A DNA stretch of 64,000 nucleotides from Balanoglossus misakiensis (GCA_040954595.2 CM082576.2:16229028-16293027), one strand, 5' to 3'; shown: positions 9,340 to 39,927, counted from the stretch's first letter. Made by a program: numbers and translations. Notes: generated by a model from the sequence alone, not told the origin.

Positions 9340-9484
9340 GTAAGCCAAAAACTGCATTAAAACGACCCATGATTTATTCGTACATGAATTCAAACCTACA
9401 TTTGCAAAACACCCATCTCCCCGCGGAACAGCTGGTCTCAATCTTTCAATATGTGCATGCCATGATCTTTTTCGTTTATTTCAG

Positions 9485-16839: not shown

Positions 16840-17107
16840 AGACTCCTCCAAGCGGCTCTGGGGTTTCTTTACTGTGCCGGGCATTTCACAGTAAAACTTC
16901 ACTGAGAACCGATACACCGACGTATAACCCTGAACAAAGAGTACTGAGATTAGTGTCAAGATGAAACAGACTTTCCTCGACCTGCCCCGTTGCCAGAGCA
17001 AGGAGTACTGAGTTCTGTGCCAACATTGCACCAAATCCTTTCCTCAACCTGCACACTGCCAGTGCACAATCAACAGCTACCCACGCGGCCATGGATTGGA
17101 GGAGTCT
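16840..17107 (-). ncRNA. Novel structured RNA candidate, subtype A copy 1
   Basis: 12-bp closing helix AGACTCCTCCAA/TTGGAGGAGTCT, conserved core GTGAAGTTTTACTGTGAAATGCCCGGCACAGTAAAGAAACCCCAGAGCCGC, and covariation with subtypes B and C. Strand chosen because most mismatches become G-U on the - strand. Confidence 0.6.
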
Positions 17108-17610
17108 TTGACGTTAGTTCCTTTAGCCCGGAAACAGTGTTGTCATGAAGACAAAAAAGAATGACAGAGAAATCAACAGATCATATTTTGCTCAAAGGCA
17201 GAGACTGTACTCACCGAGGCTGTACTTACTGAAAACATGCCAGGCGCCGATGTTGTCCACTTGAGATAATGTTCACAATTTTGTTCGGAAGTCTTCTTCC
17301 AGTTTCCATGTGTCGCACATGTTTTCTTTACATGCTACATTATGTACACATAGCCGTTCTGTCATTCTTTTATGTTTCCAAAGGACCCACATTTAGCTCC
17401 CGTGGTTACCCACACGAATTGTTCCGTATGTCTGCCCTTCTGTACATGCCTATTTCTGTGTCATCGATATTTAAAGAACGGCTTATCACATTTGAACCCA
17501 ATTTGATGGACATGTAATGATTCAAAATGGCGAGGCTTACCAGTGTTGTGATAACCCGTTGGATGAGTAACAAATCTGTCGCCCCAAAAACAAACTACAG
17601 GACAATTTGG

Positions 17611-17885
17611 AGACTCCTCCAAGCGGCTCTGGGGTTTCTTTACTGTGCCGGGCATTTCACAGTAAAACTTCACTGAGAACCGATACACCGACGTATAACC
17701 CTGAACAAGGAGTACTGAGATTAGTGTCAAGATGAAACAGACTTTCCTCGACCTGCCCCGTTGCCAGAGCAAGGAGTACTGAGTTCTGCGTCAACATTGC
17801 ACATAACCTTTTCCTCAACCTGCCCACATGGCTACATCAGTGCACAACAAACAGCTACCCACGCGGCCATGGCTTGGAGAAGTAT
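17611..17885 (-). ncRNA. Novel structured RNA candidate, subtype A copy 2
   Basis: Same core as A1. Closing helix ACTTCTCCAAGC/GCTTGGAGGAGT has a U-G wobble on the - strand. Confidence 0.6.
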
Positions 17886-18576
17886 TTGATGTCAGTTCTT
17901 TACCCCGGAAACATGAAGACAAAAAAGAATGACAGAAGTTTGGCGCAAAGGCAGAAGAAAAACAAGACTGTACTCACCGAGAACACCCCAGGCGAGGGGA
18001 CTTACATGAAATGTTCCATCTCTGTTTGCGCTGTCCACGTATATACAACGTTGATCCCGTAGACAATATCGTTTTCTCAATATCTCGAGTGTTTCCGTAG
18101 CACCGACGCAGTTGTCATATACGACTGGGTTTCTCAATCTCTTTTACATTCCAACTGTCATCATCCAAATATCATGTCTCCTGTCTTCTGGTTCGACGGT
18201 TAGGTTAATTTTCTTAATTTCGAACCTGTGATGCACACCTTCCTACTATTTACAACAAAAGTTTGATATGTCTATAAATCTTAGAATAGTGGTTTGTTTA
18301 CTTTGTTTCTCGCTTGACAAAAGTGTTTCCTTACGAATGCTGAGCCCCATTCGGTAAGCCGATGCAATTTTACAAATTATCGTTGGGAGTTGCTCGACTT
18401 CTTTGGTAAAATGAATGATACTGCTATAAAAATTATAATATGCTAGCCTAATAGATTTGTGCATACGGTTTTCAAAGTTGATGTGAAAAATATGGTTCTA
18501 ATTGTTGGCAAAAGTAACCTTATCTGTCGTTAGTCTAATATTTTAGAGAAAGAAACAACGAAAACATTTTTTTACG

Positions 18577-18818
18577 GAGCCCTGTAAGAGGTTCTGGGGT
18601 CTCTTTACCGTGCCGGGCATTTCACAGTAAAACTTCACTATGTATTCATACACCAGCGGAGGGGTGGGTACAAGATTTGACCCTGAACAAGGTCTACAAA
18701 CGGCGATGGGTCGGCTCGTTCTCTCCCCTTTCACTTAACCACCTGACCCCTGCCTCGACCTGTTCACTACTGGTGTAATTTCCACAGCTACCCACGTGAC
18801 CATAGCGTACAAGGGCTT
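18577..18818 (-). ncRNA. Novel structured RNA candidate, subtype B copy 1
   Basis: Closing helix AGCCCTTGTA/TACAGGGCT, arm helix TACACCAG/CTGGTGTA, conserved core. Confidence 0.58.
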
Positions 18819-19212
18819 ATATATTATGATCACTTTTACCCGGAAATGTCTAGCTGCAAGAATTTGTCAAGACAATGACAGATAAGATTACCTTGTACCA
18901 TTCCCGTGGCATTTTTCGATTGGGAAATTGTCAACTTCATGAGCTATGTGTTACCCCCCCTCAACCCCCCCCCCCAAAAAAAAAAAAAAAAATCTAAGGA
19001 AATTTGTGTGTGTTAGTGACTGTGTGTGAAGTCTACCGTTCACGGTAACATAGAAAATTATTTTGCCAAACTTAGAATAGAAAATATATGTTGGAGTTTA
19101 TTATTTACATTTATTCACATATGCAGCTCAATTCAAAACACGGTTTAAAAGGACATAAAGTTGTATGCCGGTGCCGAATCACATTGTTTTTTAAAATGTA
19201 GCAAATTTTGTT

Positions 19213-19422
19213 GAGTCTTCCAAGCGGTTCTGGGGTCTCTTTACCGTGCCGGGCGTTTCACAGTAAAACTTCACCGTGTACTCCTACGCCAGCGTTTTTT
19301 AGTGGAGACAAGGAATGACGGGATGGCCGAACCACCAACATCAGTTCTACTTGTTCAACACCAGTGTACTTCCCCCGGCGTACTTTCCACGGCTACCCAC
19401 GTGACCATAGCTTGGCGGTCTC
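19213..19422 (-). ncRNA. Novel structured RNA candidate, subtype C copy 1
   Basis: Closing helix GAGACCGCCAAGC/GCTTGGAAGACTC, arm helices GCCGTG/CACGGT and TACGCCGG/CTGGCGTA (compensatory versus B), conserved core. Confidence 0.58.
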
Positions 19423-22400
19423 TTTGATTCAACCTCTTAAAGCCCAGAAATATATACTGTTTTCATTCAGAAGACTAACGACAGACACCGCTGAATATTA
19501 AAATCACTGTCTATTGAAATGAGCTGTATATATGATACCAATGGGCCTAATCTTTACGATAGTTACGAATCATTCCCTTGCCTTGAGTAGGATGTTGTAT
19601 GTGTAACGCTCTTTAGGAAAATAATAATCACAGTCGCGTGAGAGTTTGTTACACGTCGAACTGTTCCTATTCTTCTGAGTCATAGGGGCAATTCGCCGTG
19701 TAATAAAAATGCTCTTTAGATACGACTTTATTTACCCGAAATACCAAAGTTTATGCAACAATCACTCCCACTTTTGATCCACGTGTGACCCCCTAGATAG
19801 GTTAGAATTATCCTGCGCTACAATCTCTGTACGGCAGCGCGTTTGACGTGAGCAGGGCCAGGGGGAACGAACGCGCTACTTGTGACAACATGTCATTCCA
19901 TTCGTGCGACGCGCACGCAGCCGTGCGCACGATGCATGCAATGTGATGTTTGGCCGAAGCACAGCGACTGCGGCCGAAGCTTGTGTATCGCTGTTTGTAT
20001 AAAGTTTACTGGCATACAGTACCTCTTCTACGACTTTTTTTGTAAAATTAGAATTCATTGGTTATTTTGCATAATTTTTAACCAATGGCGTACATGGCCA
20101 AGACGAGTTGCTTAGCATCGCACTGTATGCATCACACGACAAATATTACAGAAAACAAAAGTCTCTCACGACTCTTACCCGAGAGAGGCGCTCTTCATAT
20201 TTTATGTCCAGTAGTTCCAGTGAACACTGCCAAAACAAGTGCGTGAAGAGCGGGTTCTCAACCAGCCACTTTACAACAAAGAAAATGAAACGAAAGCAGA
20301 GAGTGTAGAGCCGCTGCTTGTGCTTTGTGATCGTGAGGAGTCGTCTATGGCAACAGTGACACAAATAGAACATCAGAACACTTCCTGTTTTCTTGCGACA
20401 AAAGCATGATGGGAATTTCATCGCGAGAACTTTCGCGCGTCCGTGAGCGGGTAACTTAGCAACAAGTATGGCGAACATTCCTTTCTTACGGCGTGGTGGC
20501 GACAGCCTTTAGGCGCGGCTTTCCGCGGACCCGAATTTTCCTTTCATTTGGCGAAGGAGGAATCTTTGCATGTACAGATTATTCTAAACCTTTAAATCTT
20601 GTGAACAAGGGGTATAACATTCCAATGATAAAATGTACTTATTTTTAGTTGGAGTTTTTGACCTAAAATTTGCGTATAAAGTTTCCTTTTAGACTTGCTC
20701 TCGTCGTAGCCTCGTAGCATTGTCTGTGCGACAGTGCTGTAAAAAAAAAAACAGTTAGACATGAATCTTACCGAGAGGCGGCGCTTTTCGGATGACAATG
20801 TTAAGTACTTGAAGTGTGGTAGAACTACCAAATGATGAAAACAGGATTTCAGCGAAAGTTTCTCGTCTTTTGTTACACTGAAGCGCGAAGGGTGGCGTCC
20901 ATCCGGCGTCTGGCTGGTAGTGTTGCGGAGAGTCACGGTTGCCGACAGCAACAGAACAATCGAAACGCACAAGAACGTTTGTGACCCAAAGCATGATGGG
21001 TATTTTGCGGTACGGCCCGCGAAAGAACCAATCGTTCGCTCTTCAGTCACTAGTAGAGACTTGAAGCCTAAAGAGAGCCGAAGAAATGTAGGATTTTTTA
21101 ATTGTTGACCTAGACAGCATAGACGAGTGACGGTAGTGAGAATGGGCTTGCACATGCACGTGACACCAAACTGTGATGACAACATGAACAGCGCCACCGA
21201 CGGTTAGAAATGTACAGAAATGTTGTGCGTGTGTACATTGTATGTACTATGTATTGGTTGTGTATCACTCGTGTATAAAATTGAACAGTAAATGATTTCA
21301 CATTTTTTCAAACGTTTACAAATATTTATAATTTTCTGAAAAATAGTACAAAATTGCCATGTACTGTTTATTAGTATTATGGTGTGTGTCACTACGTCAC
21401 TTCCGGTTTAACCCGCTCTCAGTCAGCAAAACATGGTCGACCAAGCAGTGTCACGCGTGTAGCTTTCTGTGCGCAATCGACTTATGTTCTCGTAGGTTTT
21501 GTAATGGAAACTCCGTTCGAACGAAAAACCAATCGATTTTTTTTAGTTTATGTATGTTTAGCATCGTTCTGTGAGGAAAGTACTATCGATTTTGTTCCGA
21601 GTTGCGACTTTTTGGTGTTCTTTCATTCCGTATGTCAGTTGGCATCATGGCGTACTGTTGCGAACGATCGTACTCGGGCGACGTAGTTTGAAGTTAGCAG
21701 GCAGACTAAATAGCGAGCGCACAGCTTTGTTATGTGTATATTTTGAAAGACTAATATGTAATGTGTGTGAAATTGCATGGGAGCCCCAATGCGCCCTTTT
21801 ATTTTATCGATTTCACCGTATTTAGAAACTGTATGCGCCTAACACATCCCTATCCGATTATCTCGCTGTCATTCCATAACCTCTGAGTCAGGAAGACGTC
21901 GAAGACAGAGGCGATGGATTCACTCACTACTACTTACAGATGCGCCACAGCCATGGGAGCCACCTGGGAGGAAATCATCCAGGAAGCGACAAATACCAAG
22001 AATACTTACCTGGTCCTGATTACGATTCGGACACCGGAAGCGCCGAGAGGCAGTAAACATTGAATACAACATCAGAAAAGAAAATCCTATTTTAATTAAG
22101 GCAAACGCTGGCATCAAAGCCAATACAATATTTTATTGTTTGAATTCATAGTATGCCAAGTTGAATGCAGAACTACCGGTAAATGTATAAAGGTGTATGA
22201 TTAATTTGTGTATGAGAAGATGTCAGTTTATGGAACCTAACAGTTGCATGAGGTAAAACGTGATAAAGAGAGACCGTATTTAAAACACAGTTAACATGGG
22301 TGGTGTTACGACCCCAAGTTAGCAAAACTATATTAGGACAGAAAAGCACACAAGTTATGCAATAGCCCGTAAAAATACAGAACTACGTGCTTTGTAAAGA

Positions 22401-23210: not shown

Positions 23211-23260
23211 ACTCACTCACTCACTCACTCACTCACTCACTCACTCACTCACTCACTCAC
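23211..23260. repeat. (ACTC)n microsatellite
   Basis: Read directly. A shorter copy occurs in the duplicate near 42724. Confidence 0.95.
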
Positions 23261-23461
23261 ACACAATGAATTATGCTTTAACTAGTCTGTAATTTACACC
23301 TAAAACACCGAAATACAGTATGCAGATTAAAACGTTTCTCTAACTACTTTATAATAACGCGGGTGACGAAAGCTTTGCACACACAGTTTCACGACATAAA
23401 CAGTGTTCACAGTCCCCAAATTACTGTTAATCGGGTTTCTCGTCCGTCGACTTTTACCAAT

Positions 23462-23736
23462 TTACACTCGATTTACTTCACTACTTCTTAGGCCTATACA
23501 TGTAAGTGTCTTCGGTTGCGAGGTGCGGTCGAGTCGCTTGTGAAGCGATAGCGACAGGACGGCAAACCACGCTACTGACAATAGCAGGAGTCCGGCGAAT
23601 GCACCGAATAGTTTAGCCCTGTAGTCTGGCAGATCGTAGAGCAGACAGTTCCCTTGTTCATCGCACGCCGTCCGTCCCCATAACATACACGCCGAGTCGA
23701 TGAGGGCCCCGGTGTATATCGGCGCCGGTATAGTGG
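23462..23736 (-). pseudogene. Duplicated last coding exon of the SLCO gene (orphan or alternative terminal exon)
   Basis: TIPAPIYTGALIDSACMLWGRTACDEQGNCLLYD... is nearly identical to 42951-43225. The frame is intact and acceptor CCCTTGCAG is retained. Upstream exons were not duplicated. Confidence 0.8.
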
Positions 23737-24375
23737 CTGCAAGGGATTTGTTGTATATCTTAGGCTAGGTTTACAATCATGTCTTCATTATAACCCTGCC
23801 AAGTTAGGCGACATACATGTATATTTAGTAGTAAGCTGGGCAAATCTCAATCTGATTAAAATCAGATGTAGGGAACGGCGACGCGTTTTTTTTTACAGCC
23901 CGGAAACAGTGATGTCGTGAAGACAAAAAAGAATGACAGAGAAATCAACAGATCATATTTTGCTCAAAGGCAGAGACTGTACTCACCGAGGCTGTACTTA
24001 CTGAAAACATGCCAGGCGCCGATGTTGTCCACTTGAGATAATGTTCACAATTTTGTTCGGAAGTCTTCTTCCAGTTTCCATGTGTCGCACATGTTTTCAT
24101 TACATACTACATTATGTACACATAGCCGTTCAGTCATTCTTTTATGTTTCCAAAGGACCCACATTTAGCTCCCATGGTTACCCACACGAATTGTTCCGTA
24201 TGTCTGCCCTTCTGTACATGCCTATTTCTGTGTCATCGATATTCAAAGAACGGCTTATCACATTTGAACCCAATTTGATGGACATGTAATGATTCAAAAT
24301 GGCGAGGCTTACCAGTGTTGTGATAAGCCATTGGATGATTTACAAAACGGTCGCCCCAAAAACAAACTACAGGAC

Positions 24376-24541
24376 ATTAGTGTCAAGATGAAACATACTT
24401 TCCTCGACCTGCCCCGTTACCAGAGCAAGGAGTACTGAGTTCTGCGTCAACAGTGCACATAACCTTTTCCTCAACCTGCCCACATGGCTACATCAGTGCA
24501 CAACAAACAGCTACCCACGCGGCCATGGCTTGGAGAAGTCT
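24376..24541 (-). pseudogene. Truncated subtype A RNA copy (conserved 3' core deleted)
   Basis: Matches 17720-17885. The junction GGAC|ATTAGTG removes about 115 bp, including the core. Confidence 0.6.
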
Positions 24542-25227
24542 TTGATGTCAGTTCTTTACCCCGGAAACATGAAGACAAAAAAGAATGACAGAAGTTTGGC
24601 GCAAAGGCAGAAGAAAAACAAGACTGTACTCACCGAGAACACCCCAGGCGAGGGGACTTACCTGAAATGTTCCATCTCTGTTTGCGCTGTCCACGTATAT
24701 ACAACGTTGATCCCGTAGACAATATCGTTTTCTCAATATCTCGAGTGTTTCCGTAGCACCGACGTCATATACGACTGGGTTTCTCAATCTCTTTTACATT
24801 CCAACTGTCATCATCCAAATATCATGTCTCCTGTCTTCTGGTTCGACGTTTAGGTTAATTTTCTTAATTTCGAACCTGTGATGCACACCTTCCTACTATT
24901 TACAACAAAAGTTTGATATGTCTATAAATCTTAGAATAGTGGTTTGATTACTTTGTTTCTCGCTTGACAAAAGTGTTTCCTTACGAATGCTGAGCCCCAT
25001 TCGGTAAGCCGATGCAATTTTACAAATTATCGTTGGGAGTTGCTCGACTTCTTTGGTAAAATGAATGATACTGCTATAATACAATATAATATGCTAGCTT
25101 AATAGATTTGTGCATATGGTTTTCAAAGTTGATGTGAAAAATATGGTTCTAATTGTTGGCAAAAGTAACCTTATCTGTCGTTAGTCTCATTTTTTAGAGA
25201 AAGAAACAACGAAAACAGTTTTTTACG

Positions 25228-25469
25228 GAGCCCTGTAAGCGGTTCTGGGGTCTCTTTACCGTGCCGGGCATTTCACAGTAAAACTTCACTATGTATTCAT
25301 ACACCAGCGGAGGGGTGGGTACAAGATTTGACCCTGAACAAGGTCTACAAACGGCGATGGGTCGGCTCGTTCTCTCCCCTTTCACTCAACCACCTGACCC
25401 CTGCCTCGACCTGTTCACTACTGGTGTAATTTCCACAGCTACCCACGTGACCATAGCGTACAAGGGCTC
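25228..25469 (-). ncRNA. Structured RNA candidate, subtype B copy 2
   Basis: GAGCCCT...AGGGCTC closing helix with complete core. Confidence 0.55.
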
Positions 25470-25825
25470 ATAGACATGGTCTATTTTACCCGGAAATGGC
25501 TAGCTAGCTGCACGAATTTGTCAAGACAATGACAGATAAGATTACTTTCCTATAGCATTGTTCTGTTGGAAATTATCACATTCCTCAATTATAGTATACT
25601 ACCCAAATAATAAAAAATATATTCTCTGCGAATTATGGTGTGTTTTTAGTGACTGTATGTAAAGTAAGTTCAAATCTTAATCCTTCCAAAGGAGGATAAT
25701 GCTCAGAAAAGTTCGTACTTTCAAATTTCCCCTTCAGAATTTATCACCGTCACATTCGACCTTCAAGCCACGTTCTGGACACACAGACCCATACTCGCGT
25801 AAACAAAACCACTTGGGTCTTACCA

Positions 25826-25920
25826 TCCCCTTTCACTCAACCACCTGACCCCTGCCTCGACCTGTTCACTACTGGTGTAATTTCCACAGCTACCCACGTG
25901 ACCATAGCGTACAAGGGCTC
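25826..25920 (-). pseudogene. Truncated subtype B copy (5' part only)
   Basis: Matches the 5' portion of B. The core has been removed by a deletion. Confidence 0.5.
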
Positions 25921-26315
25921 ATAGACATGGTCTATTTTACCCGGAAATGGCTAGCCAGCTGCAAGAATTTGTCAAGACAATGACAGATAAGATTACCTTG
26001 TACCATTCCCGTGGCATTTTTCGTTAGGGAAATTGTCAATTTCATCAGCTATGTGTTACCCCCCTCAACTCCCCCCCCCCCAAAAAAAAAAAAATTCTAA
26101 GGAAATTTGTGTGTGTTAGTGACTGTGTGTGAAGTCTACCGTTCACGGTAACATAGAAAATTATTTTGCCAAACTTAGAATAGAAAATATATGTTGGAGT
26201 TTATTATTTACATTTATTCACATATGCAGCTCAATTCAAAACACGGTTTAAAAGGACATAAAGTTGTATGCCGGTGCCGAATCACATTGTTTTTTAAAAT
26301 GTAGCAAATTTTGTT

Positions 26316-26525
26316 GAGTCTTCCAAGCGGTTCTGGGGTCTCTTTACCGTGCCGGGCGTTTCACAGTAAAACTTCACCGTGTACTCCTACGCCAGCGTTT
26401 TTTAGTGGAGACAAGGAATGACGGGATGGCCGAACCACCAACATCAGTTCTACTTGTTCAACACCAGTGTACTTCCCCCGGCGTACTTTCCACGGCTACC
26501 CACGTGACCATAGCTTGGCGGTCTC
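26316..26525 (-). ncRNA. Structured RNA candidate, subtype C copy 2
   Basis: Essentially identical to 19213-19422. Confidence 0.55.
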
Positions 26526-27982
26526 TTTGATGCAACCTCTTAAAGCCCAGAAATATATACTGTTTTCATCAGAAGACTAACGACAGACACCGCTGAATAT
26601 TAAAATCACTTTTTATTGAAATGAGCTGTATATATGATACCAATGGGCCTAATCTTTACGATAGTTACGCATCATACCCTTGCCTTGAGTAGGATGTTGT
26701 ATGTGTAACGCTCTATAGGAAAATAATAATCACAGTCGCGTGAGAGTTTGTTACACGTCGAACTGTTCCTATTCTTCTGAGTCATAGGGGCAATTCGCCG
26801 TGTAATAAAAATGCTCTTTAGATACGACTTTATTTACCCGAAATACCAAAGTTTATGCAACAATCACTCCCACTTTTGATCCACGTGTGACCCCCTAGAT
26901 AGGTTAGAATTATCCTGCGCTACAATCTCTGTACGGCAGCGCGTTTGACGTGAGCAGGGCCAGGGGAACGAACGCGCTACTTGACAACATGTCATTCCAT
27001 TCGTGCGACGCGCACGCAGCCGTGCGCACGATGCATGCAATGTGATGTTTGGCCGAAGCACAGCGACTGCGGCCGAAGCTTGTGTATCGCTGTTTGTATA
27101 AAGTTTACTGGCATACAGTACCTCTTCTACGACTTTTTTTTTAAAATTAGAATTCATTGGTTATTTTGCATAATTTTTAACCAATGCCGTACATGGCCAA
27201 GACGATTACGGCCTGTATTAAATCGCTAACTTTTCCCGAGTTGCTTAGCATTGCACTGTATGCATCACACGACAAATATTACAGAAAACAAAAGTCTCTC
27301 ATGATTCTTACCCGAGGGAGGCGCTCTTCATATTTTATGTCCAGTAGTTCCAGTGAACACTGCCAAAACAAGTGCGTGAAGAGCGGGTTCTCAACCAGCC
27401 ACTTTACAACAAAGAAAATGAAACGAAATCAGAGAGTGTAGAGCCGCTGCTTGTGCTTTGTGATCGTGAGGAGTCGTCTATGGCAACAGTGACACAAATA
27501 GAACATCAGAACACTTCCTGTTTTCTTGCGACAAAAGCATGATGGGAATTTCATCGCGAGAACTTTCGCGCGTCCGTGAGCGGGTAACTTAGCAACAAGT
27601 ATGGCGAACATTCCTTTCTTACGGCGCGGTGGCGACAGCCTTTAGGCGCGGCTTTCCGCGGACCCGAATTTTCCTTTCATTTGGCGAAGGAGGAATCTTT
27701 GCCTGTACAGATTATTCTAAACCTTTAAATCTTGTGAACAAGGGGTAAAACATTCCAATGATAAAATGTACTTATTTTTAGTTGGAGTTTTTGACCTAAA
27801 ATTTGCGTATAAAGTTTCCTTTTAGACTTGCTCTCGTCGTCGCCTCGTAGCATTGTCTGTGTGACAGTGCTGTAAAAAAACAACAGTTAGACATGAATCT
27901 TACCGAGAGGCGGCGCTTTTCGGATGGCAATGTTAAGTACTTGAAGTGTGGTAGAACTACCAAATGATGAAAACAGGATTTC

Positions 27983-28127
27983 AGATTTGACCCTGAACAA
28001 GGTCTACAAACGGCGATGGGTCGGCTCGTTCTCTCCCCTTTCACTCAACCACCTGACCCCTGCTCGACCTGTTCACTACTGGTGTAATTTCCACAGCTAC
28101 CCACGTGACCATAGCGTACAAGGGCTC
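27983..28127 (-). pseudogene. Truncated subtype B copy at array junction
   Basis: Junction GGATTTCAG|ATTTGACCCTG. Core absent. Confidence 0.5.
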
Positions 28128-28764
28128 ATAGACATGGTCTATTTTACCCGGAAATGGCTAGCTAGCTGCAGGAATTTGTCAAGACAATGACAGATAAGAT
28201 TACTTTCCTATAGCATTGTTCTGTTGGAAATTATCGCTTTCCTCAATTATAGTATACTACCCAAATAATAAAAAATATATTCTCTGCGAATTATGGTGTG
28301 TTTTTAGTGACTGTATGTAAAGTAAGTTCAAATCTTAATCCTTCCAAAGGAGGATAATGCTCAGAAAAGTTAGTCCTTTCAAATTTCCCCTTCAGAATTT
28401 ATCACCGTCACATTCGACCTTCAAGCCACGTTCTGGACACACAGACCCATACTCGCGTAAACAAAACCATTTGGGTCTTACCATCAGGCAGCGCTCTTAA
28501 AATAATGCTATTTATGTCCTAGAATCTTACTATCTTACTGAGATTAACACGGTAACGACCTGAACATCAGTGTCGTTTACCTCATACATTCATGGTTGTT
28601 AAAAGTATCCCATATGAGTGTTCAGTCCCCGTTCGTTTTGTAAGCCTGTTGTTTTTAGGGTATGTGAAAAACACTGCCGTTTTTTTTCATTATTAGCAAA
28701 AGTTACCTTATCTGTCGTTAGTCTCATTTTTTAGAGAAAGAAACAACGAAAACAGTTTTTTACG

Positions 28765-29006
28765 GAGCCCTGTAAGCGGTTCTGGGGTCTCTTTACCGTG
28801 CCGGGCATTTCACAGTAAAACTTCACTATGTATTCATACACCAGCGGAGGGGTGGGTACAAGATTTGACCCTGAACAAGGTCTACAAACGGCGATGGGTC
28901 GGCTCGTTCTCTCCCCTTTCACTCAACCACCTGACCCCTGCCTCGACCTGTTCACTACTGGTGTAATTTCCACAGCTACCCACGTGACCATAGCGTACAA
29001 GGGCTC
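28765..29006 (-). ncRNA. Structured RNA candidate, subtype B copy 3
   Basis: Complete copy. Confidence 0.55.
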
Positions 29007-29409
29007 ATAGACATGGTCTATTTTACCCGGAAATGGCTAGCCAGCTGCAAGAATTTGTCAAGACAATGACAGATAAGATTACCTTGTACCATTCCCGTGG
29101 CATTTTTCGTTAGGGAAATTGTCAACTTCATCAGCTATGTGTTACCCCCCTCAACTCCCCCCCCCCCAAAAAAAAAAAAAAAAAAAAATTCTAAGGAAAT
29201 TTGTGTGTGTTAGTGACTGTGTGTGAAGTCTACCGTTCACGGTAACATAGAAAATTATTTTGCCAAACTTAGAATAGAAAATATATGTTGGAGTTTATTA
29301 TTTACATTTATTCACATATGCAGCTCAATTCAAAACACGGTTTAAAAGGACATAAAGTTGTATGCCGGTGCCGAATCACATTGTTTTTTAAAATGTAGCA
29401 AATTTTGTT

Positions 29410-29619
29410 GAGTCTTCCAAGCGGTTCTGGGGTCTCTTTACCGTGCCGGGCGTTTCACAGTAAAACTTCACCGTGTACTCCTACGCCAGCGTTTTTTAGT
29501 GGAGACAAGGAATGACGGGATGGCCGAACCACCAACATCAGTTCTACTTGTTCAACACCAGTGTACTTCCCCAGGCGTACTTTCCACGGCTACCCACGTG
29601 ACCATAGCTTGGCGGTCTC
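29410..29619 (-). ncRNA. Structured RNA candidate, subtype C copy 3
   Basis: Complete copy. Confidence 0.55.
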
Positions 29620-31082
29620 TTTGATGCAACCTCTTAAAGCCCAGAAATATATACTGTTTTCATTCAGAAGACTAACGACAGACACCGCTGAATATTAAAA
29701 TCACTGTCTATTGAAATGAGCTGTATATATGATACCAATGGGCCTAATCTTTACGATAGTTACGCATCATACCCTTGCCTTGAGTAGGATGTTGTATGTG
29801 TAACGCTCTTTAGGAAAATAATAATCACAGTCGCGTGAGAGTTTGTTACACGTCGAACTGTTCCTATTCTTCTGAGTCATAGGGGCAATTCGCCGTGTAA
29901 TAAAAATGCTCTTTAGATACGACTTTATTTACCCGAAATACCAAAGTTTATGCAACAATCACTCCCACTTTTGATCCACGTGTGACCCCCTAGATAGGTT
30001 AGAATTATCCTGCGCTACAATCTCTGTACGGCAGCGCGTTTGACGTGAGCAGGGCCAGGGGAACGAACGCGCTACTTGACAACATGTCATTCCATTCGTG
30101 CGACGCGCACGCAGCCGTGCGCACGATGCATGCAATGTGATGTTTGGCCGAAGCACATCGACTGCGGCCGAAGCTTGTGTATCGCTGTTTGTATAAAGTT
30201 TACTGGCATACAGTACCTCTTCTACGACTTTTTTTGTAAAATTAGAATTCATTGGTTATTTTGCATAATTTTTAACCAATGCCGTACATGGCCAAGACGA
30301 TTACGGCCTGTATTAAATCGCTAACTTTTCCCGAGTTGCTTAGCATTGCACTGTATGCATCACACGACAAATATTACAGAAAACAAAAGTCTCTCATGAT
30401 TCTTACCCGAGGGAGGCGCTCTTCATATTTTATGTCCAGTAGTTCCAGTGAACACTGCCAAAACAAGTGCGTGAAGAGCGGGTTCTCAACCAGCCACTTT
30501 ACAACAAAGAAAATGAAACGAAATCAGAGAGTGTAGAGCCGCTGCTTGTGCTTTGTGATCGTGAGGAGTCGTCACGTCTATGGCAACAGTGACACAAATA
30601 GAACATCAGAACACTTCCTGTTTTCTTGCGACAAAAGCATGATGGGAATTTCATCGCGAGAACTTTCGCGCGTCCGTGAGCGGGTAACTTAGCAACAAGT
30701 ATGGCGAACATTCCTTTCTTACGGCGCGGTGGCGACAGCCTTTAGGCGCGGCTTTCCGCGGACCCGAATTTTCCTTTCATTTGGCGAAGGAGGAATCTTT
30801 GCCTGTACAGATTATTCTAAACCTTTAAATCTTGTGAACAAGGGGTAAAACATTCCAATGATAAAATGTACTTATTTTTAGTTGGAGTTTTTGACCTAAA
30901 ATTTGCGTATAAAGTTTCCTTTTAGACTTGCTCTCGTCGTAGCCTCGTAGCATTGTCTGTGCGACAGTGCTGTAAAAAAACAACAGTTAGACATGAATCT
31001 TACCGAGAGGCGGCGCTTTTCGGATGGCAATGTTAAGTACTTGAAGTGTGGTAGAACTACCAAATGATGAAAACAGGATTTC

Positions 31083-31227
31083 AGATTTGACCCTGAACAA
31101 GGTCTACAAACGGCGATGGGTCGGCTCGTTCTCTCCCCTTTCACTCAACCACCTGACCCCTGCTCGACCTGTTCACTACTGGTGTAATTTCCACAGCTAC
31201 CCACGTGACCATAGCGTACAAGGGCTC
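31083..31227 (-). pseudogene. Truncated subtype B copy at array junction
   Basis: Same junction as 27983. Confidence 0.5.
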
Positions 31228-31866
31228 ATAGACATGGTCTATTTTACCCGGAAATGGCTAGCTAGCTGCAAGAATTTGTCAAGACAATGACAGATAAGAT
31301 TACTTTCCTATAGCATTGTTCTGTTGGAAATTATCGCTTTCCTCAATTATAGTATACTACCCAAATAATAAAAAATATATTCTCTGCGAATTATGGTGTG
31401 TTTTTAGTGACTGTATGTAAAGTAAGTTCAAATCTTAATCCTTCCAAAGGAGGATAATGCTCAGAAAAGTTAGTCCTTTCAAATTTCCCCTTCAGAATTT
31501 ATCACCGTCACATTCGACCTTCAAGCCACGTTCTGGACACACAGACCCATACTCGCGTAAACAAAACCATTTGGGTCTTACCATCAGGCAGCGCTCTTAA
31601 AATAATGCTATTTATGTCCTAGAATCTTACTATCTTACTGAGATTAACACGGTAACGACCTGAACATCAGTGTCGTTTACCTCAAACATTCATGGTTGTT
31701 AAAAGTATCCCATATGAGTGTTCAGTCCCCGTTCGTTTTGTAAGCCTGTTGTTTTTAGGGTATGTGAAAAACACTGCCGTTTTTTTTTTCATTATTAGCA
31801 AAAGTTACCTTATCTGTCGTTAGTCTCATTTTTTAGAGAAAGAAACAACGAAAACAGTTTTTTACG

Positions 31867-32108
31867 GAGCCCTGTAAGCGGTTCTGGGGTCTCTTTACCG
31901 TGCCGGGCATTTCACAGTAAAACTTCACTATGTATTCATACACCAGCGGAGGGGTGGGTACAAGATTTGACCCTGAACAAGGTCTACAAACGGCGATGGG
32001 TCGGCTCGTTCTCTCCCCTTTCACTCAACCACCTGACCCCTGCCTCGACCTGTTCACTACTGGTGTAATTTCCACAGCTACCCACGTGACCATAGCGTAC
32101 AAGGGCTC
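31867..32108 (-). ncRNA. Structured RNA candidate, subtype B copy 4
   Basis: Complete copy. Confidence 0.55.
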
Positions 32109-32748
32109 ATAGACATGGTCTATTTTACCCGGAAATGGCTAGCTAGCTGCACGAATTTGTCAAGACAATGACAGATAAGATTACTTTCCTATAGCATTGT
32201 TCTGTTGGAAATTATCACTTTCCTCAATTATAGTATACTACCCAAATAATAAAAAATATATTCTCTGCGAATTATGGTGTGTTTTTAGTGACTGTATGTA
32301 AAGTAAGTTCAAATCTTAATCCTTCCAAAGGAAGATAATGCTCAGAAAAGTTAGTCCTTTCATATTTCCCCTTCAGAATTTATCACCGTCACATTCGACC
32401 TTCAAGCCACGTTCTGGACACACAGACCCATACTCGCGTAAGCAAAACCATTTGGGTCTAACCATCAGGCAGCGCTCTTAAAATAATGCTATTTATGTCC
32501 TAGAATCTTACTATCTTACTGAGATTAACACGGTAACGACCTGAACATCAGTGTCGTTTACCTATATACATTCATGGTTGTTAAAAGTGTCCCATATGAG
32601 TGTTCAGTCCCCGTTCGTTTTGTAAGCCTGTTGTTTTTAGGGTATGTGAAAAACACTGCCGTTTTTTTTTCATTATTAGCAAAAGTTACCTTGTCTGTCG
32701 TTAGTCTCATTTTTTAGAGAAAGAAACAACGAAAACAGTTTTTTTACG

Positions 32749-32990
32749 GAGCCCTGTAAGCGGTTCTGGGGTCTCTTTACCGTGCCGGGCATTTCACAGT
32801 AAAACTTCACTATGTATTCATACACCAGCGGAGGGGTGAGTACAAGATTTGACCCTGAACAAGGTCTACAAACGGCGATGGGTCGGCTCGTTCTCTCCCC
32901 TTTCACTCAACCACCTGACCCCTGCCTCGACCTGTTCACTACTGGTGTAATTTCCACAGCTACCCACGTGACCATAGCGTACAAGGGCTC
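32749..32990 (-). ncRNA. Structured RNA candidate, subtype B copy 5
   Basis: Complete copy. Confidence 0.55.
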
Positions 32991-33385
32991 ATAGACATGG
33001 TCTATTTTACCCGGAAATGGCTAGCCAGCTGCAAGAATTTGTCAAGACAATGACAGATAAGATTACCTTGTACCATTCCCGTGGCATTTTTCGTTAGGGA
33101 AATTGTCAACTTCATCAGCTATGTGTTACCCCCCTCAACTCCCCCCCCCCCCAAAAAAAAAAAATTCTAAGGAAATTTGTGTGTGTTAGTGACTGTGTGT
33201 GAAGTCTACCGTTCACGGTAACATAGAAAATTATTTTGCCAAACTTAGAATAGAAAATATATGTTGGAGTTTATTATTTACATTTATTCACATATGCAGC
33301 TCAATTCAAAACACGGTTTAAAAGGACATAAAGTTGTATGCCGGTGCCGAATCACATTGTTTTTTAAAATGTAGCAAATTTTGTT

Positions 33386-33595
33386 GAGTCTTCCAAGCGG
33401 TTCTGGGGTCTCTTTACCGTGCCGGGCGTTTCACAGTAAAACTTCACCGTGTACTCCTACGCCAGCGTTTTTTAGTGGAGACAAGGAATGACGGGATGGC
33501 CGAACCACCAACATCAGTTCTACTTGTTCAACACCAGTGTACTTCCCCCGGCGTACTTTCCACGGCTACCCACGTGACCATAGCTTGGCGGTCTC
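33386..33595 (-). ncRNA. Structured RNA candidate, subtype C copy 4
   Basis: Complete copy. Confidence 0.55.
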
Positions 33596-35053
33596 TTTGA
33601 TGCAACCTCTTAAAGCCCAGAAATATATACTGTTTTCATTCAGAAGACTAACGACAGACACCGCTGAATATTAAAATCACTGTCTATTGAAATGAGCTGT
33701 ATATATGATACCAATGGGCCTAATCTTTACGATAGTTACGCATCATACCCTTGCCTTGAGTAGGATGTTGTATGTGTAACGCTCTTTAGGAAAATAATAA
33801 TCACAGTCGCGTGAGAGTTTGTTACACGTCGAACTGTTCCTATTCTTCTGAGTCATAGGGGCAATTCGCCGTGTAATAAAAATGCTCTTTAGATACGACT
33901 TTATTTACCCGAAATACCAAAGTTTATGCAACAATCACTCCCACTTTTGATCCACGTGTGACCCCCTAGATAGGTTAGAATTATCCTGCGCTACAATCTC
34001 TGTACGGCAGCGCGTTTGACGTGAGCAGGGCCAGGGGAACGAACGCGCTACTTGACAACATGTCATTCCATTCGTGCGACGCGCACGCAGCCGTGCGCAC
34101 GATGCATGCAATGTGATGTTTGGCCGAAGCACAGCGACTGCGGCCGAAGCTTGTGTATCGCTGTTTGTATAAAGTTTACTGGCATACAGTACCTCTTCTA
34201 CGACTTTTTTTGTAAAATTAGAATTCATTGGTTATTTTGCATAATTTTTAACCAATGCCGTACATGGCCAAGACGATTACGGCCTGTATTAAATCGCTAA
34301 CTTTTCCCGAGTTGCTTAGCATTGCACTGTATGCATCACACGACAAATATTACAGAAAACAAAAGTCTCTCATGATTCTTACCCGAGGGAGGCGCTCTTC
34401 ATATTTTATGTCCAGTAGTTCCAGTGAACACTGCCAAAACAAGTGCGTGAAGAGCGGGTTCTCAACCAGCCACTTTACAACAAAGAAAATGAAACGAAAG
34501 CAGAGAGTGTAGAGCCGCTGCTTGTGCTTTGTGATCGTGAGGAGTCGTCTATGGCAACAGTGACACAAATAGAACATCAGAACACTTCCTGTTTTCTTGC
34601 GACAAAAGCATGATGGGAATTTCATCGCGAGAACTTTCGCGCGTCCGTGAGCGGGTAACTTAGCAACAAGTATGGCGAACATTCCTTTCTTACGGCGCGG
34701 TGGCGACAGCCTTTAGGCGCGGCTTTCCGCGGACCCGAATTTTCCTTTCATTTGGCGAAGGAGGAATCTTTGCCTGTACAGATTATTCTAAACCTTTAAA
34801 TCTTGTGAACAAGGGGTAAAACATTCCAATGATAAAATGTACTTATTTTTAGTTGGAGTTTTTGACCTAAAATTTGCGTATAAAGTTTCCTTTTAGACTT
34901 GCTCTCGTCGTCGCCTCGTAGCATTGTCTGTGTGACAGTGCTGTAAAAAAACAACAGTTAGACATGAATCTTACCGAGAGGCGGCGCTTTTCGGATGGCA
35001 ATGTTAAGTACTTGAAGTGTGGTAGAACTACCAAATGATGAAAACAGGATTTC

Positions 35054-35198
35054 AGATTTGACCCTGAACAAGGTCTACAAACGGCGATGGGTCGGCTCGT
35101 TCTCTCCCCTTTCACTCAACCACCTGACCCCTGCTCGACCTGTTCACTACTGGTGTAATTTCCACAGCTACCCACGTGACCATAGCGTACAAGGGCTC
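35054..35198 (-). pseudogene. Truncated subtype B copy at array junction
   Basis: Same junction as 27983. Confidence 0.5.
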
Positions 35199-35835
35199 AT
35201 AGACATGGTCTATTTTACCCGGAAATGGCTAGCTAGCTGCAAGAATTTGTCAAGACAATGACAGATAAGATTACTTTCCTACAGCATTGTTCTGTTGGAA
35301 ATTATCACTTTCCTCAATTATAGTATACTACCCAAATAATAAAAAATATATTCTCTGCGAATTATGGTGTGTTTTTAGTGACTGTATGTAAAGTAAGTTC
35401 AAATCTTAATCCTTCCAAAAGAGGATAATGCTCAGAAAAGTTAGTCCTTTCAAATTTCCCCTTCAGAATTTATCACCGTCACATTCGACCTTCAAGCCAC
35501 GTTCTGGACACACAGACCCATACTCGCGTAAACAAAACCATTTGGGTCTTACCATCAGGCAGCGCTCTTAAAATAATGCTATTTATGTCCTAGAATCTTA
35601 CTATCTTACTGAGATTAACACGGTAACGACCTGAACATCAGTGTCGTTTACCTCAAACATTCATGGTTGTTAAAAGTATCCCATATGAGTGTTCAGTCCC
35701 CGTTCGTTTTGTAAGCCTGTTGTTTTTAGGGTATGTGAAAAACACTGCCGTTTTTTTTCATTATTAGCAAAAGTTACCTTATCTGTCGTTAGTCTCATTT
35801 TTTAGAGAAAGAAACAACGAAAACAGTTTTTTACG

Positions 35836-36077
35836 GAGCCCTGTAAGCGGTTCTGGGGTCTCTTTACCGTGCCGGGCATTTCACAGTAAAACTTCACTAA
35901 GTATTCATACACCAGCGGAGGGGTGGGTACAAGATTTGACCCTGAACAAGGTCTACAAACGGCGATGGGTCGGCTCGTTCTCTCCCCTTTCACTCAACCA
36001 CCTGACCCCTGCCTCGACCTGTTCACTACTGGTGTAATTTCCACAGCTACCCACGTGACCATAGCGTACAAGGGCTC
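35836..36077 (-). ncRNA. Structured RNA candidate, subtype B copy 6
   Basis: Complete copy. Confidence 0.55.
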
Positions 36078-36716
36078 ATAGACATGGTCTATTTTACCCG
36101 GAAATGGCTAGCTAGCTGCACGAATTTGTCAAGACAATGACAGATAAGATTACTTTCCTATAGCATTGTTCTGTTGGAAATTATCACTTTCCTCAATTAT
36201 AGTATACTACCCAAATAATAAAAAATATATTCTCTGCGAATTATGGTGTGTTTTTAGTGACTGTATGTAAAGTAAGTTCAAATCTTAATCCTTCCAAAGG
36301 AAGATAATGCTCAGAAAAGTTAGTCCTTTCATATTTCCCCTTCAGAATTTATCACCGTCACATTCGACCTTCAAGCCACGTTCTGGACACACAGACCCAT
36401 ACTCGCGTAAGCAAAACCATTTGGGTCTAACCATCAGGCAGCGCTCTTAAAATAATGCTATTTATGTCCTAGAATCTTACTATCTTACTGAGATTAACAC
36501 GGTAACGACCTGAACATCAGTGTCGTTTACCTATATACATTCATGGTTGTTAAAAGTATCCCATATGAGTGTTCAGTCCCCGTTCGTTTTGTAAGCCTGT
36601 TGTTTTTAGGGTATGTGAAAAACACTGCCGTTTTTTTTTCATTATTAGCAAAAGTTACCTTGTCTGTCGTTAGTCTCATTTTTTAGAGAAAGAAACAACG
36701 AAAACAGTTTTTTACG

Positions 36717-36958
36717 GAGCCCTGTAAGCGGTTCTGGGGTCTCTTTACCGTGCCGGGCATTTCACAGTAAAACTTCACTATGTATTCATACACCAGCGGA
36801 GGGGTGAGTACAAGATTTGACCCTGAACAAGGTCTACAAACGGCGATGGGTCGGCTCGTTCTCTCCCCTTTCACTCAACCACCTGACCCCTGCCTCGACC
36901 TGTTCACTACTGGTGTAATTTCCACAGCTACCCACGTGACCATAGCGTACAAGGGCTC
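36717..36958 (-). ncRNA. Structured RNA candidate, subtype B copy 7
   Basis: Complete copy. Confidence 0.55.
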
Positions 36959-37358
36959 ATAGACATGGTCTATTTTACCCGGAAATGGCTAGCCAGCTGC
37001 AAGAATTTGTCAAGACAATGACAGATAAGATTACCTTGTACCATTCCCGTGGCATTTTTCGTTAGGGAAATTGTCAACTTCATCAGCTATGTGTTACCCC
37101 CCTCAACTCCCCCCCCCCCAAAAAAAAAAAAAAAAAATTCTAAGGAAATTTGTGTGTGTTAGTGACTGTGTGTGAAGTCTACCGTTCATGGTAACATAGA
37201 AAATTATTTTGCCAAACTTAGAATAGAAAATATATGTTGGAGTTTATTATTTACATTTATTCACATATGCAGCTCAATTCAAAACACGGTTTAAAAGGAC
37301 ATAAAGTTGTATGCCGGTGCCGAATCACATTGTTTTTTAAAATGTAGCAAATTTTGTT

Positions 37359-37568
37359 GAGTCTTCCAAGCGGTTCTGGGGTCTCTTTACCGTGCCGGGC
37401 GTTTCACAGTAAAACTTCACCGTGTACTCCTACGCCAGCGTTTTTTAGTGGAGACAAGGAATGACGGGATGGCCGAACCACCAACATCAGTTCTACTTGT
37501 TCAACACCAGTGTACTTCCCCCGGCGTACTTTCCACGGCTACCCACGTGACCATAGCTTGGCGGTCTC
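37359..37568 (-). ncRNA. Structured RNA candidate, subtype C copy 5
   Basis: Complete copy. Confidence 0.55.
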
Positions 37569-39018
37569 TTTGATGCAACCTCTTAAAGCCCAGAAATATA
37601 TACTGTTTTCATTCAGAAGACTAACGACAGACACCGCTGAATATTAAAATCACTGTCTATTGAAATGAGCTGTATATATGATACCAATGGGCCTAATCTT
37701 TACGATAGTTACGCATCATACCCTTGCCTTGAGTAGGATGTTGTATGTGTAACGCTCTTTAGGAAAATAATAATCACAGTCGCGTGAGAGTTTGTTACAC
37801 GTCGAACTGTTCCTATTCTTCTGAGTCATAGGGGCAATTCGCCGTGTAATAAAAATGCTCTTTAGATACGACTTTATTTACCCGAAATACCAAAGTTTAT
37901 GCAACAATCACTCCCACTTTTGATCCACGTGTGACCCCCTAGATAGGTTAGAATTATCCTGCGCTACAATCTCTGTACGGCAGCGCGTTTGACGTGAGCA
38001 GGGCCAGGGGAACGAACGCGCTACTTGACAACATGTCATTCCATTCGTGCGACGCGCACGCAGCCGTGCGCACGATGCATGCAATGTGATGTTTGGCCGA
38101 AGCACAGCGACTGCGGCCGAAGCTTGTGTATCGCTGTTTGTATAAAGTTTACTGGCATACAGTACCTCTTCTACGACTTTTTTTGTAAAATTAGAATTCA
38201 TTGGTTATTTTGCATAATTTTTAACCAATGCCGTACATGGCCAAGACGATTACGGCCTGTATTAAATCGCTAACTTTTCCCGAGTTGCTTAGCATTGCAC
38301 TGTATGCATCACACGACAAATATTACAGAAAACAAAAGTCTCTCATGATTCTTACCCGAGGGAGGCGCTCTTCATATTTTATGTCCAGTAGTTCCAGTGA
38401 ACACTGCCAAAACAAGTGCGTGAAGAGCGGGTTCTCAACCAGCCACTTTACAACAAAGAAAATGAAACGAAAGCAGAGAGTGTAGAGCCGCTGCTTGTGC
38501 TTTGTGATCGTGAGGAGTCGTCTATGGCAACAGTGACACAAATAGAACATCAGAACACTTCCTGTTTTCTTGCGACAAAAGCATGATGGGAATTTCATCG
38601 CGAGAACTTTCGCGCGTCCGTAACTTAGCAACAAGTATGGCGAACATTCCTTTCTTACGGCGCGGTGGCGACAGCCTTTAGGCGCGGCTTTCCGCGGACC
38701 CGAATTTTCCTTTCATTTGGCGAAGGAGGAATCTTTGCCTGTACAGATTATTCTAAACCTTTAAATCTTGTGAACAAGGGGTAAAACATTCCAATGATAA
38801 AATGTACTTATTTTTAGTTGGAGTTTTTGACCTAAAATTTGCGTATAAAGTTTCCTTTTAGACTTGCTCTCGTCGTCGCCTCGTAGCATTGTCTGTGTGA
38901 CAGTGCTGTAAAAAAACAACAGTTAGACATGAATCTTACCGAGAGGCGGCGCTTTTCGGATGGCAATGTTAAGTACTTGAAGTGTGGTAGAACTACCAAA
39001 TGATGAAAACAGGATTTC

Positions 39019-39164
39019 AGATTTGACCCTGAACAAGGTCTACAAACGGCGATGGGTCGACTCGTTCTCTCCCCTTTCACTCAACCACCTGACCCCTGCC
39101 TCGACCTGTTCACTACTGGTGTAATTTCCACAGCTACCCACGTGACCATAGCGTACAAGGGCTC
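39019..39164 (-). pseudogene. Truncated subtype B copy at array junction
   Basis: Same junction as 27983. Confidence 0.5.
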
Positions 39165-39802
39165 ATAGACATGGTCTATTTTACCCGGAAATGGCTAGCT
39201 AGCTGCAAGAATTTGTCAAGACAATGACAGATAAGATTACTTTCCTATAGCATTGTTCTGTTGGAAATTATCACTTTCCTCAATTATAGTATACTACCCA
39301 AATAATAAAAAATATATTCTCTGCGAATTATGGTGTGTTTTTAGTGACTGTATGTAAAGTAAGTTCAAATCTTAATCCTTCCAAAGGAGGATAATGCTCA
39401 GAAAAGTTAGTCCTTTCAAATTTCCCCTTCAGAATTTATCACCGTCACATTCGACCTTCAAGCCACGTTCTGGACACACAGACCCATACTCGCGTAAACA
39501 AAACCATTTGGGTCTTACCATCAGGCAGCGCTCTTAAAATAATGCTATTTATGTCCTAGAATCTTACTATCTTACTGAGATTAACACGGTAACGACCTGA
39601 ACATCAGTGTCGTTTACCTCAAACATTCATGGTTGTTAAAAGTATCCCATATGAGTGTTCAGTCCCCGTTCGTTTTGTAAGCCTGTTGTTTTTAGGGTAT
39701 GTGAAAAACACTGCCGTTTTTTTTTCATTATTAGCAAAAGTTACCTTATCTGTCGTTAGTCTCATTTTTTAGAGAAAGAAACAACGAAAACAGTTTTTTA
39801 CG

Positions 39803-39927
39803 GAGCCCTGTAAGCGGTTCTGGGGTCTCTTTACCGTGCCGGGCATTTCACAGTAAAACTTCACTATGTATTCATACACCAGCGGAGGGGTGGGTACAAG
39901 ATTTGACCCTGAACAAGGTCTACAAAC
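39803..39927 (-). pseudogene. Truncated subtype B copy (3' core only) at array end
   Basis: Core present. Breaks at GGTCTACAAAC|TTATTTTTAG. Confidence 0.5.

Follow-up and report, generated by a model that had tools for sequence, protein, structure and literature searches.

Composition and history of the array

The window analysed here, a stretch of 64,000 nucleotides (nt) from Balanoglossus misakiensis (GCA_040954595.2 CM082576.2:16229028-16293027), carries on its minus strand an array of repeated units which quite probably represent a functional RNA of some kind. In a motif scan the 5' core of the unit was found in 20 exact copies and the 3' core in 15, of which one deviates at a single position; none lies on the plus strand or outside 16.8-39.9 kb. 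A preliminary description of this DNA, made from the sequence alone, had reported both core motifs, and they are present as written, on that strand and in that interval only. Its counts for three subtypes, A, B and C, were also borne out by a family profile (nhmmer), which recovered 14 full units of 213-277 nt (two A, seven B and five C). The profile added seven partial units that the preliminary description had omitted, six of them 5'-only and one 3'-only, and at E<=10 it found nothing else in the window. A covariance model spanning 90 positions of the 3' core recovered the same 15 sites at 108-113 bits and no further window site above 10 bits, and both profile and covariance model gave zero copies in the remaining 41 kb. 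The units and their remnants are as follows.

16840..17109, minus: unit A1, full; its start is the predicted +1 A, 18 nt ahead of the core TGG
17611..17887, minus: unit A2, full; two oppositely oriented GAA/AGUA loop modules in the arm
18577..18820, minus: unit B0, full; three substitutions relative to the other B copies, one disrupting a core G-C pair
19213..19425, minus: unit C0, full (motif and profile match)
23899..23940, minus: orphan A1 upstream motifs with no RNA unit after them, at the end of the duplicated block
24372..24543, minus: A-type 5' fragment; 3' half deleted via a 3-nt microhomology, upstream motifs retained
25228..25471, minus: unit B, full (motif and profile match)
25826..25922, minus: B-type 5' fragment (profile match, self-comparison)
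25826..39927, no strand assigned: higher-order tandem amplification within the second block copy, period about 3.97 kb (the first about 3.1 kb), 99% identical
26316..26528, minus: unit C, full (motif and profile match)
27983..28129, minus: B-type 5' fragment (profile match, self-comparison)
28765..29008, minus: unit B, full (motif and profile match)
29410..29622, minus: unit C, full; a single substitution disrupts an arm pair
31083..31229, minus: B-type 5' fragment (profile match, self-comparison)
31867..32110, minus: unit B, full (motif and profile match)
32749..32992, minus: unit B, full (motif and profile match)
33386..33598, minus: unit C, full (motif and profile match)
35054..35200, minus: B-type 5' fragment (profile match, self-comparison)
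35836..36079, minus: unit B, full (motif and profile match)
36717..36960, minus: unit B, full, used as reference B; arm base with GAA (36922-36920) opposite AATA (36786-36783)
37359..37571, minus: unit C, full, used as reference C; arm base with GAA (37533-37531) opposite AGTA (37428-37425)
39019..39166, minus: B-type 5' fragment (profile match, self-comparison)
39803..39927, minus: B-type 3'-only fragment, without upstream motifs

Self-comparison of the window revealed that the block from 17.1 to 23.8 kb is duplicated at 96-97% identity. Since 10 of the 14 full units sit inside this duplicated and further amplified block, 96-99% identical throughout, the copies are not independent, and because most of them stem from the recent, 99%-identical amplification of about 4 kb, only three independent lineages remain. 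The preliminary description was therefore right about the array itself and over-counted its evidence. What was multiplied at the DNA level to give the array is a single small cluster (A1, A2, B and C). The fragment junctions have microhomologies of 2-3 nt and neither poly-A nor an adjacent target-site duplication, and the cluster would have grown by DNA duplication and deletion rather than by retroposition; with such a history, the comparative signal has to come from the three lineages. When the duplicated blocks were compared, the RNA bodies diverged by 0.6-0.9% and the spacers by 2.1-2.4%, with p 0.03-0.05 in four of five comparisons, which overlap and are not independent of each other.

Folding and covariation

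Folded singly, A1, B and C arrive at a common scaffold made of a terminal stem, a 3-nt bulge, neck helices, a three-way junction, a long arm and a hairpin. This last hairpin is invariant, with 10 base pairs (bp) and a 10-nt loop, is found in both the minimum-energy and the centroid fold of B, and is closed by a GUG-CAC pair that also occurs in the arm base of C. It forms part of the 3' core, for which reference B gives an example.

36726..36778, minus: 3' core with an internal T4, the 10-bp hairpin with its 10-nt loop, the words UGAAA and AGARA, and the strand that pairs with the 5' core

The loop of the hairpin ends in a self-complementary CCGG in all the 3' cores (36750-36762, minus strand, in the example), and this end could give loop-loop dimers or, as an alternative, pair with the GGGU of the 5' core. 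The helices named in the preliminary description are present, although less perfect than it had implied: the terminal stem of C, read from the sequence, keeps 10 of 13 pairs and the arm-base helix of A is down to 4 pairs.

The plainest argument for structure comes from comparing the three lineages column by column. Among A1, B and C, 66 of 73 core columns are identical (17/20 in the 5' core and 49/53 in the 3' core), whereas only 7 of 26 columns are identical in the terminal stem (3/14 and 4/12 in its two strands), and yet that stem still pairs in each of them. The flanks are poorly conserved, with 1/17, 2/32 and 5/45 identical columns. In an alignment of seven sequences with 42 pairs, 94.6% of the cells can pair and nine pairs change on both sides with pairing kept across the three lineages. 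The covariation score was matched by none of 500 shuffles and structures slid along the alignment paired at 36-48%, both controls being inflated by the relatedness of the sequences, of which the tool itself warns. In 4/4 units folding favours the minus strand over the plus strand, by 8-31 kcal/mol. Fold stability relative to shuffles gave z -2.85 for A, -1.17 for B and -1.39 for C, and since only A folds better than its shuffles the case for structure rests on covariation and not on stability.

The arms carry recurrent internal loops. At the arm base, GAA lies opposite AGUA in C and opposite AAUA in B; A has no arm-base GAA loop, and its arm carries instead two copies of a module, each with that loop and facing opposite ways.

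17813-17811 with 17716-17713, and 17780-17777 with 17746-17744, minus: the arm loops of A2, GAA with AGTA and AGTA with GAA, respectively; the inner one was picked by eye from the fold

AGUA/GAA loops thus lie between helices in A1, A2 and C, with AAUA/GAA at the matching place in B. We take AGUA/GAA to be the signature of the loop-E motif (S-turn, bulged-G); looking for these letters in PMC8450098 gave no occurrence. The words UGAAA and AGARA of the invariant 3' core occur together in 4% of shuffled cores. Words of this type are described as double T-loop words in PMC7583486, which also treats the layers of the loop-E motif and its use as a binding surface.

Upstream motifs and putative transcription signals

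All 20 copies of the 5' core are preceded by TTTCYGGG at 42-44 nt, by TCTGTCRTT at 67-83 nt and by a pyrimidine-A step at 18 nt, all distances being counted to the core TGG. Triplets drawn at random from the window matched as well as the two motifs in 0/1500 and 1/1500 cases, and the DNA around the motifs is unrelated between the subtypes (1/17 and 2/32 columns identical, against 7/8 in the proximal motif itself). With the A of the step as +1, the motifs fall at about -25 and at -60 to -65.

36978..36985, minus: proximal motif TTTCYGGG, reference B example; also 17127-17134 (A1) and 37589-37596 (C)
37017..37025, minus: distal motif TCTGTCRTT, reference B example; also 17160-17168 (A1) and 37623-37631 (C)
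36931..36942, minus: box-A-like 5' core, reference B example; 7/8 positions of the assumed consensus, with C at the equivalent of A14

Two motifs at set distances form a promoter-like layout, of the kind expected of a small-RNA gene, and they may constitute a bipartite external promoter with the start at the pyrimidine-A step. The tRNA box A and box B patterns used for scoring are the consensus sequences as we presume them to be. By these, the earlier statement that tRNA A and B boxes are missing has to be divided: the 5' core is box-A-like, and the best box-B-like word common to all subtypes reaches only 5/7, so that a shared box B is indeed absent. Only the arm of B comes closer, with a word that fits box B at 6/7 positions and follows box A by 41 nt. 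The preliminary description, sound on the array, had missed this box-A-like core together with the upstream elements, the loop-E-type loops and the inverted repeats that flank some units. Downstream of the core, AAA stands 13-15 nt past its end at all 15 3' ends (3/3 columns across A1, B and C), the first run of four or more T comes 22-31 nt past the core in B, C and A2, and in these same units T4-T5 runs lie 10-22 nt beyond the terminal stem.

Conserved upstream elements are an accepted mark of genuine small-RNA genes (PMC5054213). Motifs at about -60 to -65 and -25 liken the units to snRNA-type genes (U-snRNA, 7SK, RMRP, RPPH1), as does a size like that of RMRP and 7SK, and the tandem clusters of sea urchin U7 recall the array (PMC5054213, PMC10498592). 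The units differ from snRNA-type genes in lacking an Sm site in 3/4 units, GAUC, the pseudoknot order of RNase P/MRP and any Rfam match.

Pairs of splice-donor-like words (GTAAGT, GTGAGT) lie 80-120 nt upstream of all A-type starts (24660-24625, 18005-17970 and 17232-17205, minus strand).

Flanking repeats and genomic setting

Units of the B and C subtypes are enclosed by inverted repeats with arms of 26-30 nt.

18511..18894, no strand assigned: inverted repeat pair around B0, arms 18511-18531 and 18874-18894; similar pairs at the other full B units
19115..19535, no strand assigned: inverted repeat pair around C0, arms 19115-19144 and 19506-19535; 30 nt, 80%, unlike the B pair
17357..17380, plus: inverted partial copy of the upstream region of A, between A2 and A1

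In five of the six B and C units tested such repeats were matched by 0/500 shuffles, with p 0.04 in the sixth, and against genomic pairs p was 0.006-0.008. In B the arm downstream of the unit repeats the distal upstream motif in inverted form, the homology between B units stops at the outer ends of the arms, and an adjacent target-site duplication is absent at 7/7 full B units. No inverted repeats were found within 130 nt of A1 or A2. These repeats could be factor-binding sites in two orientations, outer stems of a precursor or the ends of an old element.

The window has about 40% G+C and contains exons of pentraxin, PAN, fibrinogen-domain and OATP genes. On either side of the array stand the last OATP exon (about 43 kb) and a fibrinogen-domain exon beginning at about 16035, and all three are on the minus strand. 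The OATP exon was duplicated together with the array block and is present at 42951-43253 and, as an orphan inside the array, at 23462-23764 (minus). In the fibrinogen-domain gene (15330-16035, minus) the domain exon opens with a splice acceptor at about 16035 and the first exon was not found, so that the array could lie in an intron of this gene.

Searches for known families and homologues

Rfam gave no match in the whole window at gathering scores and, at E<=10, only noise on 16.7-19.6 kb, on one C unit and on the 5' and 3' halves of a B unit; ARAGORN predicted no genes in the window. Run on the array units, the Infernal check that the preliminary description had proposed thus yields no family. 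The hallmarks which that description found missing are mostly missing indeed. In the four units examined there is no box C, CTGA occurs only in the arms of A2 and C, no unit has a terminal ACA and no snoRNA model matches, in agreement with its view on C/D and H/ACA RNAs. Rfam returns no RNase P/MRP, SRP, 7SK, 5S or tRNA match and GATC is absent in 4/4 units. The telomere templates CCCTAA, TAACCC and CCTAACC, which we assume to be the relevant repeats, are likewise absent in 4/4. As to the Sm site, assuming the usual consensus, its absence was upheld in 3/4 units; the one match lies in the variable arm of A1 only.

Three resemblances were pursued and given up. An RNase P/MRP reading does not agree with the units, which have no pseudoknot order and no space for a specificity domain, taking the architecture as we presume it. 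Words in the arms and ends that seemed to us 5S-rRNA-like find no 5S match in Rfam. One class of B units is preceded by a hammerhead-like word (37057-37086, 33089-33118, 29105-29134 and 26019-26048, minus strand), which by eye has no proper stem III and is probably a chance likeness.

Pattern scans gave 2 and 0 matches in viral contigs, none in metagenomes with the gapped 3' pattern and 90 with the 18-mer of the 5' core, and 2 in GTDB. None of the 94 matched loci has the rest of the unit, and the 17 of the 94 that were also searched with the covariance model gave a best E of 1.7. No phage record matched by blastn. A literature search, covering mainly papers outside subscription, found no description of such an RNA.

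Three of the metagenome matches to the 5'-core 18-mer (L086:1-618, L008:1-140 and L005:440-494) are animal-repeat-like sequences without the rest of the RNA, and are probably chance matches. L086 holds two units of about 260 nt with a hammerhead-type core on the opposite strand, which we take to be Penelope- or retrozyme-like.

Proposed function and alternative explanations

With a confidence that stops a little short of even, we are inclined to suggest that the units are separately transcribed scaffold small RNAs, comparable to vault and Y RNAs in their plan and nevertheless a family of their own, with a common protein on the core and further partners specific to the arms. RNA polymerase III, acting on a hybrid or external promoter and reading through one internal T4, is the enzyme that we would prefer on account of the box-A-like core and of the T4-T5 runs beyond the stem in B, C and A2, with polymerase II as an alternative. 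The invariant core (bulged neck helix, three-way junction and hairpin with the 10-nt loop) would be bound by one common protein, the lead candidate for which, by architecture only, may be a TROVE-domain protein of the TEP1 or Ro60 type. The arm would act as a rod displaying loop-E loops, a single one at its base in the case of B and C and a more distant pair in the case of A, and through their arms the subtypes may recruit different second partners, or different numbers of them. The undescribed structured RNA with constant scaffold and variable arm of the preliminary description finds support in the covariation, the strand bias of 8-31 kcal/mol, the upstream elements and the lack of an Rfam match; the ribozyme that it had offered as an alternative finds none.

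Several observations weigh against this proposal. Outside the window no homologue was found in the viral, metagenome, prokaryote or phage collections; these hold little animal DNA, and such negatives therefore say little about the range of the family. Selection on structure is read from three paralogue lineages, the count of pairs changing on both sides was matched by 45 of 500 shuffles, B and C alone fold no better than shuffles, and the fifth comparison of bodies with spacers was not significant (p 0.21). The neck helix of A has a rival in an alternative 5' hairpin (neck versus alternative 0.21 versus 0.55 in A1). Among shuffled units about 6-9% give a match with the loop-E finder, and one of the matches behind the p of 0.003 for C was invalid because of overlap; as the finder is noisy and the p for C inflated, the support for loop-E lies in its recurrence in A and C and in the variant of B standing in the same place. 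Polymerase III is made doubtful by the lack of a box B shared by all subtypes, by the invariant T4 inside the core, by the absence of a U-run at the stem and by A1, where the first T4+ run comes only 53 nt past the core. The candidate protein partner of the core is a guess. The inverted repeats of B and C are left unexplained by a scaffold RNA, and for this reason a mobile element and a processed precursor stay alive as explanations.

It is unlikely, in our judgement, that the units are true vault RNAs or the missing Y RNAs, grown longer through an additional hairpin and a long arm, with TEP1 or Ro60 as their protein. The 5' core presumably resembles the 5' ends of both classes, a likeness which may only reflect shared tRNA descent. 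Clustered genes, paired ends, conserved stems and a variable middle are common to vault and Y RNAs (PMC4726728, PMC7058938, PMC10498592), and the panhandle, box-A-like 5' end, variable middle and clustering of the units would fit either class. With vault RNAs (RF00006; TEP1-bound) they share clustered paralogues, a 5' motif resembling box A, a variable centre and both upstream and internal elements (PMC7058938, PMC8824774, PMC10498592); vault RNAs are, moreover, poorly conserved and hard to find (PMC7058938, PMC8824774), that of sea urchin being smaller than that of rat (PMC550661). With Y RNAs and nematode sbRNAs (Ro60-bound) they share the gene cluster, stems that are conserved around a variable loop and a lower stem with a 3-nt bulge, and GUG-CAC in a helix may be a further likeness (PMC4726728); the same source places Ro60 in most metazoa and reports Y-like RNAs only for vertebrates, nematodes, two insects and amphioxus. 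The comparison with Rfam models and published descriptions nevertheless sets the array family apart. No Vault (RF00006), Y_RNA or sbRNA match appears at E<=10 with whole units or halves, although vault RNAs have been described in hemichordates as well as in echinoderms, annelids and molluscs (PMC8824774). Box A is followed by GTAGCYGT in the units and by TTACTTCG in vault RNAs, whose GTTC-type box B near the 3' end (PMC8824774) has no counterpart shared by the units. Vault RNAs end in a U-run terminator at the stem, while in the units the first T4+ run lies 22-53 nt past the core, and the invariant hairpin and three-way junction are extra to the vault plan. The Ro site of Y RNAs is a 7-bp helix with a bulged C and a 3-nt bulge opposite (PMC4726728), whereas the consensus fold of the array has a 3-nt bulge in the 5' strand and no opposing bulged C; of the Y-RNA combination of GUG-CAC in the upper stem with a UUAUC loop, the array has GUG-CAC at the invariant hairpin and the C arm base, and TTATC is absent in 4/4 units. 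At 213-277 nt the units are about twice as long as vault RNAs (80-150 nt) and also exceed Y RNAs (100+/-20 nt), from which the three-way junction and the lack of a U-tail separate them further. Because of the missing Rfam match, TTACTTCG, shared box B, Ro-site geometry and U-tail, and because of the length, we do not file the array under vault or Y RNAs.

Equally unlikely is an origin from a non-autonomous mobile element that preserved its structure in order to move and was later tandem-duplicated; this would be either a SINE derived from tRNA or a DNA element with inverted repeats. The box-A-like head, the box-B-like word of B, the 7 broken copies among 21 and the inverted repeats at whose outer ends the homology of B units stops would agree with it; however, the units are clustered, with zero copies in the other 41 kb, have a covarying terminal stem, and show neither poly-A tail nor target-site duplication at the 7 full B units. 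They also retain, at fixed distances outside the folded unit, upstream motifs that would be left behind in retroposition; the inverted repeats of B are unlike those of C and are wanting near A1 and A2, and variable ends with a fixed interior are the reverse of what we take to be the MITE pattern. Those same repeats would be outer stems of a precursor if the units were cis elements of a host transcript from the minus strand or RNAs carried in its introns, which we consider quite improbable. The array does share its strand with the upstream OATP gene and the downstream fibrinogen-domain gene, and splice-donor-like words lie upstream of A and B; yet a promoter accounts better for the constant distances at which TTTCYGGG and the pyrimidine-A step precede the core, C/D boxes and a terminal ACA box are absent, A is without a close outer stem and the outer duplexes have no consistent strand preference. 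There is a very small chance that the RNA binds tRNA or a tRNA-like RNA through a double T-loop platform and S-turns, in the manner of T-box riboswitches and RNase P. The stem I/II of the former and the specificity domain of the latter have UGxRA and AGAGA words and loop-E loops in long helices (PMC7583486); but the two words occur together in 4% of shuffled cores, and Rfam gives no T-box or RNase P signal. The array units, unlike a T-box, are eukaryotic and stand-alone, with no specifier, T-box bulge or downstream gene, and word order and spacing differ, the order being reversed with respect to stem I as we presume it to be and a 10-bp helix standing between the words. The remotest of these readings is a new class of ribozyme that would cleave or splice itself, in the manner of retrozyme-type tandem repeats. 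The tandem layout, the closed terminal stem and a core that is invariant and in part unpaired would agree with it, but the sole Rfam candidate, Hairpin, is at noise level (E 3.6-5.4, 11.7-12.6 bits where the gathering score is 65), the units contain no hammerhead core, and every unit is accompanied by promoter-like motifs of its own and by unrelated spacers, which is not how monomers released from a multimer would look. Nothing supports the ribozyme reading of the array.

The scaffold RNA that we prefer has a wider form, which we regard as doubtful: a missed class of animal small RNAs, externally promoted and tRNA-descended, with a fixed protein-binding core and interchangeable loop-E arms, conserved across at least one invertebrate phylum, possibly gripping tRNA by the double T-loop, and forming a ribonucleoprotein without counterpart among vault, Y, 7SK, SRP, RNase P/MRP and snRNPs. 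New families of stable structured small RNAs are rare in animals. If expressed, the units would represent a new small ribonucleoprotein or else the missing RNA partner of a Ro60/TEP1-type protein where Y RNAs are unreported, and this second outcome, if true, would open an old question to testing. Arms exchanged by nature, with one S-turn at the base or two further out, would offer a ready structure-function series, and the upstream motifs a handle on other hidden RNA genes in the same genome.

Other features of the window

For two exons of the window the only named relatives to emerge are proteins of Ptychodera flava, at 37-43% identity; another search yielded none at its cut-off, and an atlas returned the pentraxin family alone. 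Tandem pentraxin-domain exons lie at 9466-10137 and 12058-12741 (plus strand), their nearest multi-pentraxin proteins being those of Ptychodera flava (37-38%). The CpG-rich spacer at 19800-22100 and its copies contain several open frames of 60-250 codons, two of which gave no Pfam match. Two imperfect palindromic stretches, of 350 and 155 nt (8528-8876 and 47235-47388), are 81-85% self-complementary and MITE-like, and a fragment of an LTR-retrotransposon RNase H domain is present at 61785-62162 on the minus strand.

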